Positions 18,355 through 43,452 of a stretch of 44,453 nucleotides of DNA are shown piece after piece. Each line of letters starts with the position of its first letter. Position 1 is the stretch's first letter. The stretch is from an uncultured Candidatus Saccharibacteria bacterium. Lineage in GTDB: Bacteria; Patescibacteriota; Minisyncoccia; UBA6257; JACOXY01. The stretch spans positions 1-44,453 of the forward strand of contig CAYHMC010000010.1 in assembly GCA_964357615.1 (NCBI GenBank). Direction: 5' to 3'. The notes under the pieces are model-generated. The model searched no databases. It was not told the origin of the DNA and saw only the letters and a list, made by a program, of their open reading frames with translations. The position numbers and the translations under genes were made by a program.

Positions 18355-18383
18355 TTGACATTATGATATAAATATGCTATAAT
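18355..18383 (+). promoter_or_regulatory. Consensus sigma70 promoter TTGACA-N17-TATAAT driving GC-rich cassette 1
   Basis: Exact -35 and -10 hexamers with a 17-nt spacer. Confidence 0.5.
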
Positions 18384-18453
18384 TTATGAAGCAAATTGTA
18401 ATCCCCATAAGTCCTGACCGCAAGGAAGGCGGGGAGTAGGAAAGGCAAAACCG

Positions 18454-18828
18454 ATGAGTTTCAAACAAGAGTTTGGCATCAAGGGTTCGACCTTCGTGCT
18501 CTGGTGCGTCGTCGCTTCCGCGATGATTCTCGGGCTCGCGTGGGTTGGCCAGGGAAGCGACTTCTTCCTCTACAAGGTCTTCGCGCCGAAGTACGAGGCC
18601 GTGCGTCGCGATACCTTCGAGCAGTCGAAGGCGTACAACCAGGGCATGATCCAGGAGCTCCAGAACATGCAGTTCGAGCATGCGAAGGCGCATCCGGGGC
18701 AGAAGGATGCTCTTGCGTCCATCATCCTGCATCGGGCCGCCGACTACGACCTGAACGACCCGCGAGTTCCCGCTGAACTCCGGCAGTTCGTCCAGAGCCT
18801 CCGACAAGAACGATCGAGCGCTCGCTAA
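18454..18828 (+). CDS. GC-rich (~60%) hypothetical protein with one N-terminal TM helix
   Basis: Strong GC3 codon bias on the + strand; GGAAAGG lies upstream. The minus-strand ORFs here are high-GC shadows. Confidence 0.6.
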   Translation: MSFKQEFGIKGSTFVLWCVVASAMILGLAWVGQGSDFFLYKVFAPKYEAVRRDTFEQSKAYNQGMIQELQNMQFEHAKAHPGQKDALASIILHRAADYDLNDPRVPAELRQFVQSLRQERSSAR

Positions 18829-18853
18829 GAGCAAGAAAGAAGGAGACCAAGAG

Positions 18854-19378
18854 ATGAAACAAGCGAAGATTCTTGCAGTTGCAGTGTTCGCACTTTTCGC
18901 GGCCTGCGCTCCTCCTCCCACGAGTAGTGATGTCCAACGGGACCGTCAAGAAACGATGGTCGCTGAGGGCGTCTCTCAAGTCGGCGTTCCCGCCATCGTG
19001 AACTTTCGCGAGTACAAGCTTGCGAAGGACATCTACGAGATGCGGGACCAGACCGGTCTCGTGACTTACACCTACCTCTGGAGTGACATTCAGGGTAAGC
19101 TCCTCTTCTTCTGCGATTCCATCGGCTACCCGATTCCGTACGCCACGCAGTTCTCGGCGCCGGAATCGGTTCAGCGTTTCTACCTGCCGGGACGAGGAAA
19201 TGTTCCTCGTGAGTGGGGCAAAGAGAAACTGCCCCAAGCCGAGCCGAACGGACTCTTCACTCCCAGCTCTGCCGAAGGCACCTGGGTCATGTGCAAGGAT
19301 CCGAATGGCAAGGACACGCGGCCGACCTATGTCGAGCCTCGAGTCATCGTCACGCAGTTCAAGCTGACGACCGACTAA
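18854..19378 (+). CDS. GC-rich hypothetical lipoprotein (signal peptide with LFAAC lipobox)
   Basis: AAGGAG Shine-Dalgarno, GC3 bias, N-terminal MKQAKILAVAVFALFAAC. Confidence 0.6.
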   Translation: MKQAKILAVAVFALFAACAPPPTSSDVQRDRQETMVAEGVSQVGVPAIVNFREYKLAKDIYEMRDQTGLVTYTYLWSDIQGKLLFFCDSIGYPIPYATQFSAPESVQRFYLPGRGNVPREWGKEKLPQAEPNGLFTPSSAEGTWVMCKDPNGKDTRPTYVEPRVIVTQFKLTTD

Positions 19379-19414
19379 CGGTAGCGGGTTCAAAAATCCC
19401 GCGATGAGTACACG

Positions 19415-19460
19415 CCCCCGACGGAAAATGCGCCATGCGCAAATTCTGTCGGGGGTTTTT
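19415..19460 (+). terminator. GC-rich intrinsic terminator (CCCCCGAC ... GTCGGGGG then TTTTT)
   Basis: Seen in the sequence; it closes cassette 1. Confidence 0.6.
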
Positions 19461-19521
19461 CAATTGTAAAAATTGAGTTAATCGGCAGTTCTTTTGAGTT
19501 AGAGAGTAATTTGATAGAATT

Positions 19522-19878
19522 ATGGCTATGGCTATTAAAAATAAATCATCACATGTAAAAGCTTTGGAAAAGAAAGTAAAAATTGTAATGAAAAAATATC
19601 AGCTTGAATATCCGGATGTCAAAGTAGATAGAGATTACTATCCTTTTAAAATTACCGAGGAGTGGGGAGAGTGTTTACAAGCATTTCTTATGTTTACTGA
19701 CCGTGGGCGTCAAAAAGGGAAAAGCAAAAAAGAAATTAAAAATCTCCTAGAAGAAGAATTAGCGGATGTTTTCGGGTATATGTTGCTTTTTGCTCAAAAT
19801 GAAAATATTGACTTGGAAAAAGCATTAGACAAAAAATGGTTTACATATCTAAGTAAATCTCAAAATAATTTGAAATAA
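19522..19878 (+). CDS. MazG-like nucleoside triphosphate pyrophosphohydrolase
   Basis: EExGE ... EELADVFGYMLLFAQ ... IDLE motif pattern. Confidence 0.55.
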   Translation: MAMAIKNKSSHVKALEKKVKIVMKKYQLEYPDVKVDRDYYPFKITEEWGECLQAFLMFTDRGRQKGKSKKEIKNLLEEELADVFGYMLLFAQNENIDLEKALDKKWFTYLSKSQNNLK

Positions 19879-41912: not shown

Positions 41913-42643
41913 AATTAAGTTTTGTTATACCAGCCTATAATGAGGAAAAATATATAAAGACATGCTTGGAGTCTGTCTTAAAGCAAGCTTCTGGTAATGA
42001 TGATATTGAAGTTATTGTTGTAGATAATGCAAGCACAGATAAAACAAAAGAAATTGCAAAATCTTTTAGCGGAGTAATTGTTGTCTCTGAACCAAAAAAG
42101 GGATTAGTACGAGCAAGGCAGGCAGGGTACTTGGCAAGTCGAGGTGATTTAATAGCAAATATAGATGCAGACGCAATATTGCCTGATGGGTGGCTAGAAA
42201 AAGTTTTTGAAAAATTTTCTAAGCACAAAGACATTGTTGCGCTATCTGGCCCCTATATTTATTACGATCTTCCTTGGTTAGCGAGTGTTGTTGCCAAAGT
42301 TTTTTATTTTTTTGGTTATATAGTGCATCTTATTAGCAATCACATTTTTAAAAAAGGGGGAATGATACAGGGTGGAAATTTTGTTTTGCGCAGAGATGCG
42401 CTAAATAAAATTGGTGGTTTTAATGTGAATGAGATTGAATTTTATGGAGAAGACACTGATGTAGCAAGGCGCATTAGAGAGGTTGGAAAAATATTATTTT
42501 CGTTTGATTTTAAGATGTATTCATCTGCTCGAAGACTAAACAAGGAGGGTGTAATCAGAATGGGTTTTAAGTATGCAATTAACCATTTTTGGGTACTTTT
42601 ATTCAAAAAACCCTATACAAAAGATTATATAGATATAAGGTAG
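41909..42643 (+). CDS. Glycosyltransferase family 2
   Basis: LSFVIPAYNEEKYI ... VIVVDNASTDKT; overlaps the GT4 stop by 4 bp (ATGA). Confidence 0.8.
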   Translation: MKLSFVIPAYNEEKYIKTCLESVLKQASGNDDIEVIVVDNASTDKTKEIAKSFSGVIVVSEPKKGLVRARQAGYLASRGDLIANIDADAILPDGWLEKVFEKFSKHKDIVALSGPYIYYDLPWLASVVAKVFYFFGYIVHLISNHIFKKGGMIQGGNFVLRRDALNKIGGFNVNEIEFYGEDTDVARRIREVGKILFSFDFKMYSSARRLNKEGVIRMGFKYAINHFWVLLFKKPYTKDYIDIR

Positions 42644-42710
42644 TCAAAAACCTCTAGTTTTTAAGAAAATGACTAATATAAGCTTTATTTAGTGGGTTTT
42701 TGGGGTGGTC

Positions 42711-42739
42711 TTGCATTTTATCGAAAATTATGGTATAAT
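42711..42739 (+). promoter_or_regulatory. Promoter TTGCAT-N17-(TG)TATAAT driving GC-rich cassette 2
   Basis: Extended -10 TGGTATAAT. Confidence 0.4.
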
Positions 42740-42812
42740 GTAGCCAGAACAAAAAAGCTAGAGTATTGCAATTTCCACCACTTCTAAGTGAAAGAGAGGT
42801 GATAATCGTGCG

Positions 42813-43031
42813 GTGGGATTTCATCGTAGTGAAAGGTCTCGTTTGGGAGGTGCTCGTCGATCTCGGTATCCCGATCACCTGTATCGTGGCCTTTCTGATG
42901 CTCGTGAAGTAGATTCAACCACAACGTCCGGTTCAATGCCGGCCAACGAAAGTGAGGATGACTGCGATGCAGAATCACGAAAAGCGTATCCGCGGAGCAA
43001 AGGGCGACCTTGCCCGTCGGGCGAAGAGTAG
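42813..43031 (+). CDS. Arg-rich 72-aa GTG-start ORF in GC-rich cassette 2; coding status uncertain
   Basis: AGAGAGGTG precedes the GTG. The ORF overlaps the stronger 42952 ORF in another frame. Confidence 0.2.
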   Translation: MGFHRSERSRLGGARRSRYPDHLYRGLSDAREVDSTTTSGSMPANESEDDCDAESRKAYPRSKGRPCPSGEE

Positions 43032-43392
43032 CCCACTCTCGACTCTCTACGGGTTCCTGTGCCAGTGGAACGCGAAATCCGACAGTCAGTTCAATCCGCT
43101 GAAGGAGGGGAACGACAGGGCCTCCGCGCTCTTCGCTCGTCTCGTCTCGGCGGCGGACATGAACACGCTGGTCACTGCTCTCCGCGACCAGATGAAGGAA
43201 GCACGGCTCGGCAACCGCTGGTTCTGGGACGAGCTTCACGGTCACGTCGGTGACCTGCTGAACGCCAACCGCGTCGCTCTCCGCTCTCTGCGGGCCGAAC
43301 TCCGGTTCGCCCTTCCTGCGACGGGCTCGCACCACAACCGCTATGTGCGGCGTCACAGCTCCGGCTTTCCCGCTACTGCTCGCGCTGCCTAA
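42952..43392 (+). CDS. GC-rich (~62%) hypothetical cytoplasmic protein
   Basis: Pronounced GC3 bias in this frame. It ends 19 nt before a strong terminator. The true start may be the ATG at 42958 or 42970. Confidence 0.5.
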   Translation: MRMTAMQNHEKRIRGAKGDLARRAKSSPLSTLYGFLCQWNAKSDSQFNPLKEGNDRASALFARLVSAADMNTLVTALRDQMKEARLGNRWFWDELHGHVGDLLNANRVALRSLRAELRFALPATGSHHNRYVRRHSSGFPATARAA

Positions 43393-43411
43393 TCGGCAGC
43401 CACTCTAGCCT

Positions 43412-43452
43412 GGGCCCCAGCGACTACTTGTCGCCGGGGCCCTTCTTTTTTA
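43412..43452 (+). terminator. GC-rich intrinsic terminator (GGGCCCCAGCGAC-TACTT-GTCGCCGGGGCCC then TTCTTTTTT)
   Basis: Seen in the sequence. Confidence 0.6.

Follow-up and report, generated by a model that had tools for sequence, protein, structure and literature searches.

Moron-like gene cassettes in a Saccharibacteria chromosome and a putative envelope module shared by phages and the Candidate Phyla Radiation

Three short GC-rich cassettes interrupt the AT-rich DNA of a 44.4-kb contig from an uncultured Candidatus Saccharibacteria bacterium (CAYHMC010000010.1, assembly GCA_964357615.1). This chromosomal contig of ~34% GC was analysed over its full 44,453 nucleotides (nt) and is referred to here as the window. 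We find that the cassettes are moron-like autonomous foreign units, and that behind one of them, cassette 1, stands a widespread module of phages and of the Candidate Phyla Radiation (CPR) for which a role at the cell envelope is predicted. We lean towards the view that all three are accessory genes of natural origin that were acquired horizontally and are kept, in the manner of phage morons, as autonomous, insulated units with strong expression. A preliminary description of the same DNA had instead raised two other origins, a dedicated capture mechanism and a non-natural source.

Results

All three cassettes have the + strand as coding strand and are co-oriented, and at each of them we found sequence signals for a promoter and a terminator (Table 1), which bears out the preliminary description of three complete transcription units. 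They are spaced 9 and 14 kb apart and form no array. The promoters had been described as exact or near-exact matches to the sigma-70 consensus. This is right for cassettes 1 and 2, which are exact, whereas cassette 3 comes near the consensus for its -10 element only, with a perfect extended -10 and a weak -35. The exact motif TTGACA-N17-TATAAT is present at two sites in the whole window, both strands included, and both sites lie just upstream of GC-rich open reading frames (ORFs); none was expected by chance (0 in 100 dinucleotide shuffles). Versions with one mismatch are absent from the window, and putative host promoters carry two mismatches (for example at 19956, 25709 and 29082). Exact-consensus promoters are lacking elsewhere in the window, and their association with GC-rich ORFs is not chance.

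The coding DNA was rightly called compositionally foreign. GC content at third codon positions (GC3) is 0.56-0.78 in the cassette ORFs versus 0.23-0.32 in the host, with the second position (GC2) lowest in the + frames, and the long ORFs on the minus strand are by-products of GC-rich sequence. The preliminary description had also reasoned that transferred DNA usually brings its own GC-rich 5' region, which made an AT-rich promoter in front of foreign DNA look suspicious. This premise is weak: sigma-70 promoters are AT-rich and terminator stems GC-rich by definition, so the contrast between them mostly makes ordinary signals visible.

The observed cassette pattern is real, non-random and no assembly artefact. 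Separate assemblies, given here by our own handles, match the window at 98.8-100% identity for cassette 1 (L001 and L002), for both junctions of cassette 2 (L059 and L060) and for the 5' junction of cassette 3 (L067). The lowest value, 98.8%, reflects a run of Ns in L002, which differs from the window by this run and one single-nucleotide polymorphism only. By exact-protein look-ups, SecY and the cassette proteins were found in Hainich groundwater assemblies from well H41, 0.1 um filter fraction.

Table 1. Positions and properties of the cassette features in the window (aa, amino acids; RBS, ribosome-binding site; dG, folding free energy; z, folding score relative to shuffled sequence).
Feature	Position	Strand	Description
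tRNA-Met (CAT)	18005..18077	+	ARAGORN and Rfam
Cassette 1 GC island	about 18078-19460	+	ORFs 58-60% GC
GC-elevated non-coding spacer	18078..18354	+	45-53% GC, between tRNA-Met and the cassette 1 promoter
Cassette 1 promoter	18355-18383	+	exact TTGACA-N17-TATAAT, TGn extended -10
Cassette 1 5' leader	18390..18453	+	~64 nt; hairpin CCCC..GGGG, dG -17.1, z -2.1; RBS-poor end
c1a	18454..18828	+	124-aa protein, one N-terminal transmembrane helix; weak match to phrog_26268
c1b	18854..19378	+	174-aa predicted lipoprotein, invariant Cys18; phrog_24725 match E = 3.7e-27
Cassette 1 intrinsic terminator	19415-19460	+	hairpin 19415-19455, 19-nt arms, T5; dG -33.3 kcal/mol
Cassette 2 promoter	28434-28462	+	exact TTGACA-N17-TATAAT
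Cassette 2 GC island	about 28470-29056	+	51% GC
Cassette 2 ORF	28514..28996	+	160 aa, TTG start after AAAGGAGAG; C-terminal CxxH..CxxC motif
Cassette 2 terminator	about 29025-29065	+	hairpin about 29025-29055, GC stem, 15-nt loop, T6AT6; dG -11.8 kcal/mol, weaker
Cassette 3 promoter	42711-42739	+	TTGCAT (42711-42716), 17-nt spacer, TGgTATAAT (42731-42739)
Cassette 3 GC island	about 42790-43445	+	63% GC
Cassette 3 small ORF	42808..42912	+	34 aa, hydrophobic, GTG start after GAGAGGTGA; GC by codon position 0.60/0.26/0.74
Cassette 3 ORF	42967..43392	+	141 aa from ATG (146 aa from GTG at 42952); basic, GFLCQW..FNP motif
Cassette 3 terminator	43412-43451	+	GGGCCCC..GGCGAC..GTCGCC..GGGGCCC (43412-43442) and T-run TTCTTTTTT; dG -27.4 kcal/mol

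The cassette 1 family

Cassette 1 encodes a small membrane protein (c1a) and a predicted lipoprotein (c1b). We found 1882 homologues of the latter, and Cys18 together with 27 other residues is invariant in 27 lipoprotein sequences at 54-86% identity. In nearly all of ~50 public loci (tblastn) the c1a partner gene adjoins the lipoprotein gene. The closest relative is P0002 (86% identity). The nearest relatives outside the CPR, L007 (69% identity) and L068 (67%), are located in phage-like contigs of 66-69% GC, and L068, with a contig of 66% GC, is the nearest viral relative. Pfam, PADLOC and NCBIfam gave nothing credible for any cassette protein, with no match to the PADLOC profiles at E <= 1, and the AlphaFold2 model of the lipoprotein was only moderate (predicted local distance difference test, pLDDT, 67.7). 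By analogy with membrane proteins and lipoproteins encoded by morons, the pair most likely acts at the envelope. That it is a constitutive envelope pair blocking phage adsorption or DNA entry, that is, a superinfection-exclusion system, is a tentative proposal which we hold to be possible. A spanin identity of the pair of transmembrane protein and lipoprotein was considered as well and dropped: the phage copies stand outside annotated lysis cassettes, and the lipoprotein is a 170-aa folded domain.

In the window, the GC elevation of the cassette 1 block starts right after tRNA-Met (which ends at 18077) and runs on to the promoter. The AT-rich promoter is a pocket within the anomalous block and not its edge. 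The intervening spacer (18078-18354) has no ORF of more than 58 aa and no Rfam match; it contains a terminator-like hairpin (18235-18265), and its + strand folds better than shuffled sequence (z -2.67). A perfect 16-nt inverted copy of the T-arm/acceptor 3' part of tRNA-Met lies at 18284-18299. The spacer may represent either a small RNA transcribed together with the tRNA or what remains of an integrated element. Because of the position after tRNA-Met, the GC-elevated spacer and the inverted tRNA fragment, we infer that cassette 1 is probably what is left, 1.4 kb in length, of an element once integrated at this tRNA gene.

Cultured phages have the gene pair as well: S-SRM01 of Synechococcus (54% identity), phi3626 of Clostridium (Gp44/Gp45, 36% identity) and a group infecting Vibrio. 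The phi3626 pair lies in a region with single-stranded DNA-binding protein and recombinase genes, the S-SRM01 pair among hypothetical genes. In IMG/VR, 229 viral contigs carry a relative of the lipoprotein; for statistics on viral loci, 80 of these were fetched and 79 scored for promoters. In the 80 contigs, the GC content of the module tracks that of the phage (median excess over the flanks +0.04), and the partner gene is adjacent in 56. An upstream promoter match of at least 11/12 was found in 3 of the 79 scored loci. In GC-rich phage-like contigs, overall GC of the module is slightly below that of the flanks. By sequence comparison, cassette 1 is identified as a phage-family two-gene module of a predicted transmembrane protein and a predicted lipoprotein, which in viral contigs is embedded in gene arrays, with the composition of the phage and no promoter of its own.

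Within a species-representative genome set, the family was found at 46 genome loci, all of them in metagenome-assembled genomes (MAGs) and mostly in CPR, and the gene pair was kept adjacent in nearly all. The CPR lineages comprise Saccharibacteria as well as Doudna-, Wolfe-, Vogel-, Kaiser-, Uhr-, Yonath-, Morani-, Berkel-, Shapiro-, Peri-, Davies- and Falkowbacteria. The pair stands out as a sharply bounded GC island of ~1 kb in many AT-rich CPR hosts (module versus flank GC 0.60 vs 0.40 in L021, 0.60 vs 0.43 in both L026 and L040, and 0.58 vs 0.37 in the window). A match of at least 11/12 to TTGACA-N16-18-TATAAT is located within 200 nt upstream of 14 of the 32 CPR loci, often with a TGn, compared to 3 of 217 upstream regions of control ORFs from the same loci (Fisher p = 9e-12). 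Promoter perfection is a genuine trait of the family. Leaders span 40-180 nt and as a rule include a long hairpin (mean z -2.6), and a GC hairpin with a T-run ends most units of the family by inspection. Judged from these sequence signals, the CPR version of cassette 1 is a stand-alone unit of ~1 kb with a predicted near-consensus promoter and terminator, often much GC-richer than its host.

One leader hairpin recurs in five different lineages. It is ~22 bp long with the core GGCYRCATYTTTWAG... (L021:3442-3570, L024:3486-3601, L025:1927-2027, L046:1041-1172 and L048:3462-3588) and shows compensatory changes at 10 of its 23 pairs. Possibly it is a cis-regulatory or mRNA-stabilising element not yet described. 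In other subfamilies, the long hairpins of the leaders differ from it.

The preliminary description had suggested a search for the cassettes in other contexts, and this search was fruitful: the cassette 1 family occurs at many different sites, and relatives of cassette 3 show the same layout as the window copy. The insertion sites of cassette 1 vary, from the position after tRNA-Met in the window to one between fusA and tuf in the str operon (L063) and one beside mreB (L005), while in L011 and L041 the cassette is found on opposite sides of smpB-ssrA. In 5 of 30 loci, the gene immediately upstream is one for a tRNA or a transfer-messenger RNA (tmRNA) (binomial p ~0.009 against an assumed rough background of 4.3%); the upstream RNA genes in other family members are tmRNA, tRNA-Glu, tRNA-Arg and tRNA-Gln. 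The predicted units thus stand at many sites, just downstream of tRNA or tmRNA genes more often than expected. Conserved synteny with the str/S10 operon was considered and dropped: only L021 and L063 are nearby, with differing arrangements, and the 'EF-G' genes (elongation factor G) of L024 and L040 are other GTPases.

Two closely related copies delimit the unit. L010 and L063 are 72% identical. Their homology is limited to the stretch between the -35 box (-122) and the terminator end (+75), both included, and the flanking genes are unrelated. Since this homology includes the promoter, the promoter belongs to the conserved or moved unit and is not a resident host promoter. Among the cassette 1 loci in general, BLASTN matches were confined to the coding region, except for the close pairs L010/L063, L010/L011, L022/L028 and L030/L032. 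A 48-nt segment (GCCAnTTTTTGAT....AAAGTAAGTTCT, 79% identical) is found upstream of the cassette in L010 (1299-1346) and downstream of it in L063 (6631-6678); the cassette may have been inserted independently on the two sides of a host element, or the mobile unit may be permuted.

GC3 of the lipoprotein gene correlates loosely with that of the host (r = 0.59, 44 loci). In hosts with GC3 <0.45, it is >0.1 above the host value in 9 of 19 loci and >0.1 below it in 1, and fully AT-rich copies (GC3 0.26-0.29) occur in L022, L028, L038, L039 and L047. A promiscuous gene caught at different stages of amelioration, from fresh to ameliorated, would be expected to show such a pattern; the concept of amelioration reportedly goes back to Lawrence and Ochman.

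Several genomes hold more than one copy. A diverged paralogue of the lipoprotein gene lies directly downstream in four of them (L006:4664-5221, L030:4658-5134, L032:4649-5125 and L050:4573-5034), and L005 carries a whole second, inverted copy of the gene pair (8751-9633, minus strand). In four of these five loci the second lipoprotein paralogue is 40-47% identical to the window copy. The module was therefore duplicated repeatedly.

Cassettes 2 and 3

The single ORF of cassette 2 is also called in its 160-aa version on other contigs, and this long form is correct because the N-terminus is conserved. We found only two relatives, both distant (43-51% identity). Their contigs, of 35% GC, consist of tiny co-directional ORFs, as is typical of phage early regions; GC3 of the relatives is host-like (0.31-0.36), and neither has its own promoter. 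A search of PHROGs yielded no credible match for cassette 2 or cassette 3.

For cassette 3, no homologue was detected at the k-mer level, and a metagenome scan returned the same organism only. Among 1.84 billion representatives, P0136 and P0137 were the only credible relatives (40-45% aa identity); both share the GFLCQW..FNP motif. Their loci, L065 and L066, show an extended -10 promoter, a GC-rich structured leader and a GC-rich ORF (GC3 0.65-0.72), and the terminator stem is homologous in both, with the same GGCGAC..GTCGCC core. The small hydrophobic ORF of the window is uncertain, as it is not present in these two relatives. In L066, the relative lies directly upstream of prfB, as in the window, with glmS as the upstream neighbour versus a glycosyltransferase gene in the window. 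Between the window and L066, the prfB proteins are 79% identical, and fourfold-degenerate sites are saturated (identity 0.30 versus 0.28 expected at random).

The prfB gene (release factor 2) of the window starts at 43480 and has the classical +1 programmed frameshift site CTTTGAC at 43549-43555, which is also present in L066. The T-run of the cassette 3 terminator ends ~28 nt before this start. Because the gap is so short, prfB may depend on read-through from the cassette 3 promoter.

Genomic setting

The window contains a ribosomal-protein operon, of which Pfam identified L6, L18, S5 and L15, and similarity to L063 revealed L4, L2 and S19. Further genes encode SecY, Adk, Map, GreA, L10, L7/L12 and two tRNAs, in addition to an S-adenosylmethionine (SAM) riboswitch. 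S5 (6920-7480) is directly followed by L15 (7489-7905), with no L30 in between, a gene order which we take to be typical of CPR (Patescibacteria) genomes and which is consistent with such an origin of the contig. Together with the 0.1 um filter fraction of the samples, it makes a CPR bacterium the very probable source. In a Pfam scan of the ORFs, no prophage or phage genes were found in the window.

Downstream of cassette 1, a copper/metal-handling cluster (19956-25658) encodes a P-type ATPase with a heavy-metal-associated (HMA) domain (20281-22602), a DUF305 protein, a DsbD_2-HMA protein and a cupredoxin. Its GC content of 38-42% is above host level, and the P-type ATPase and a second ORF downstream share ~66% protein identity with genes of the Saccharibacteria MAG L048. 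The metal cluster is followed by a stand-alone AT-rich unit of cassette-like build (25709-26300), with the promoter TTGACA-17-TATTGT at 25709-25737, a 157-aa ORF without family match (25765-26238) and a bidirectional terminator (26279-26293). This unit may be an older, ameliorated acquisition.

Divergent from cassette 2, a cytochrome P450 gene is located at 27064-28308 on the minus strand (Pfam p450, 1.3e-27), which is unexpected in a small-genome, presumably fermentative CPR bacterium. On the other side of cassette 2, positions 29203-31797 (+) encode an 864-aa homologue of the eukaryotic major vault protein (MVP; Pfam MVP_shoulder 1.6e-21, Vault_3 3e-13), downstream of which a 776-aa protein with a weak pectate-lyase-like region is encoded at 31927-34257 (+). 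Both genes have ~39-43% GC, above the host average. Since the metal cluster, cassettes 1 and 2, the P450 gene and the MVP homologue all lie there, the segment from 18 to 34 kb, downstream of tRNA-Met, suggests a flexible region rich in foreign genes.

Upstream of tRNA-Met, a SAM-I riboswitch (16882-16982, 62 bits) precedes a 164-aa ORF (17027-17521) without Pfam or NCBIfam match, which may be an uncharacterised SAM-regulated gene.

Discussion

If the three cassettes are horizontally acquired, moron-like genes, they would have arrived with phage or other foreign DNA, and their GC excess would mostly mark an acquisition too recent for amelioration. The units would have a common layout, in which a sigma-70 promoter, of consensus or extended -10 type, is followed by a structured 5' leader, by one or two small genes and by a strong intrinsic terminator. 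Selection for high and portable expression, acting on genes with codons poorly suited to the host, would lie behind their perfect promoters.

Several observations weigh against this scenario. None of the cassettes is flanked by prophage genes, an integrase gene or att direct repeats, and no empty-site allele was found, insertion being deduced from composition and comparison. The viruses carrying cassette 1 are AT-rich for the most part (median flank GC 0.38); GC-rich donors are not the majority. The relatives of cassette 2 are AT-rich, too, and are thus not its donor. Relatives of cassettes 2 and 3 were absent from the IMG/VR scans, and phage ancestry is solid for cassette 1 only. The function proposed for cassette 1 is itself unsupported by any domain or fold. 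Cassette 3 is the most difficult case. Two of its copies occupy the prfB-proximal site across a host divergence with saturated synonymous sites. All three members of its family are GC-rich (GC3 0.65-0.75) in AT-rich contexts, and none of the 1.84 billion representatives provided a relative in any GC-rich genome. Recent arrival fits cassette 3 poorly because all copies are GC-rich in AT-rich DNA and no GC-rich, donor-like relative exists among them. Either divergent members may repeatedly land at, or be exchanged into, one site, or some force may keep GC high. Homology-facilitated illegitimate recombination, in which DNA that has been taken up is anchored in a conserved neighbour gene, would be one route to the former.

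The same features of cassette 3, including the terminator that is homologous between copies, favour another explanation, according to which the cassettes have resided in their genomes for a long time and high GC is actively maintained in them, with promoter, 5' hairpin, GC-rich body and terminator forming a high-expression package. The maintaining force could be selection for stable, RNase-resistant, highly expressed mRNA free of internal promoters, or GC-biased gene conversion at frequently recombining loci. Further pointers in this direction are the GC3 excess of those CPR copies of cassette 1 that have a promoter, which is strongly one-sided, and the frequency of long leader hairpins. We nevertheless judge permanent maintenance unlikely: fully AT-rich copies of cassette 1 exist, which means that its module does not need high GC, its insertion sites differ between genomes, and the excess at synonymous sites is very large (0.3 to 0.75), larger to our knowledge than has been reported for GC-biased gene conversion or expression-linked bias in bacteria. 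A related idea, to which we give a rather low probability, is that CPR carry a class of standardised high-expression cassettes whose GC-richness is maintained or constantly renewed and is no fading mark of arrival. Natural transformation, with recombination anchored in a highly conserved neighbour (tRNA, tmRNA, prfB or the tuf/S10 operon), would let such cassettes spread without their own recombinase. If true, this would account for the GC-rich, prfB-proximal copies of cassette 3, for the excess of tRNA/tmRNA sites and for the one-sided GC3 excess.

A dedicated capture system, integron-like or site-specific, would place promoterless GC-rich ORFs behind resident strong promoters. That three alike units lie within 25 kb, that perfect promoters occur at cassettes only, and that sites recur upstream of prfB for cassette 3 and next to tRNA or tmRNA genes for cassette 1 could be read in this way. 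But the Pfam-scanned ORFs include no integrase, transposase or other recombinase, repeat and k-mer searches revealed no shared boundary motif, attC-like site or flanking direct repeat at the three cassettes, and 10-12-mers shared between them occur at chance level. The cassettes are dispersed, each with its own promoter; this promoter travels with the cassette 1 genes, being part of the L010/L063 homology, and at cassette 1 in the window GC-elevated DNA continues upstream of it. Capture at promoter-proximal integration sites, as put forward in the preliminary description, is therefore very improbable. Less probable still is that the GC-rich stretches are structured non-coding RNAs and their ORFs artefacts of GC-rich sequence. 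Structured RNAs are typically GC-rich in AT-rich genomes, long ORFs are present on both strands, each stretch has its own promoter and terminator, and the leaders and the stretch at 18078-18270 fold well. However, the periodicity of GC3 over GC1 over GC2 is seen in the + frames only, RBS sequences precede the start codons, and conservation is at the protein level, as the 28 invariant residues of the lipoprotein illustrate and as is the case for the relatives of cassettes 2 and 3, detectable at this level only. Rfam, at gathering thresholds and at E <= 1, found only tRNAs and the SAM riboswitch, and nothing on the cassettes. Finally, textbook promoters, clean terminators and abrupt changes in composition do look designed, or like chimeric joins. 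Yet the cassettes recur in several independent assemblies of replicate environmental samples, at 98.8-100% identity across the junctions, and have hundreds of diverged natural relatives with a like layout. Engineered or synthetic inserts, or chimeric mis-assemblies, and with them the non-natural origin raised earlier, have practically no probability in our view.

Horizontally acquired, autonomous units of this kind can be compared with known systems. The 'more DNA' elements of phages, such as HK97 gene 15, are reportedly owed to Hendrix and colleagues. Phage morons are transcribed independently, from their own promoter to their own terminator, deviate in GC content, encode small accessory proteins that are often located in the envelope, and spread horizontally; HK97 gp15 confers superinfection exclusion (PMC3594210). 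The cassettes resemble them in having their own promoter and terminator, as far as signals in the DNA go, and a composition unlike that of their neighbours. Unlike morons, which sit inside a phage or prophage between conserved phage genes, they are chromosomal and have no phage genes nearby; their neighbours are tRNA-Met, a MazG-like gene, the P450 gene, the MVP-like gene, a glycosyltransferase gene and prfB. In addition, the cassette 1 genes in viral contigs usually lack a promoter of their own. The phage pairs of phrog_24725 (Gp44-Gp45 of phi3626 and QPX48102-QPX48103 of S-SRM01) are homologous to cassette 1 and have the same order, a small protein followed by one of ~170 aa. They are part of co-directional arrays and annotated as hypothetical, whereas the window copy is chromosomal and GC-discordant, with a perfect promoter and a terminator.

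Integron cassettes are likewise short, mostly single-gene mobile units of foreign composition in recurring contexts. They differ in being promoterless as a rule, in their attC end and in being organised in arrays next to intI, attI and Pc, none of which is found at the window cassettes, where the 3' hairpins are unrelated in sequence and followed by T-runs. With tRNA- or tmRNA-linked islets, cassette 1 has in common that it starts right after tRNA-Met with a 16-nt fragment of the tRNA 3' part nearby. In contrast to tRNA-targeting islands, it lacks an integrase gene and an att pair in direct repeat, its tRNA fragment being inverted and only 212 nt away, and cassettes 2 and 3 are not tRNA-linked. 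Superinfection-exclusion proteins, such as T5 Llp, TP-J34 Ltp, T4 Imm/Sp and HK97 gp15, are small membrane proteins or lipoproteins of phage origin with their own promoters outside the lytic programme. The likeness to cassette 1 is by analogy only, as no sequence or fold similarity of its proteins to known superinfection-exclusion proteins was detected.

Our analysis removes the suspicion of engineered DNA or of a new capture machine. Instead, a picture emerges in which phage-family genes would be repeatedly taken into small CPR genomes as insulated, strongly promoted units. The persistent GC-richness of cassette 3 is a small, testable anomaly for models of amelioration. The promoters also speak, indirectly, for the use of canonical -35/-10 and extended -10 promoters by CPR RNA polymerase. 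Cassette 1 represents a widespread, uncharacterised module with a putative envelope role, common to phages of very different hosts and many CPR lineages. CPR organisms are reported to have few classical defence systems; in them, the module may help to determine surface interactions between phage and host or between epibiont and host. These findings should be useful for studies of CPR promoter biology and of gene flow between phages and CPR.

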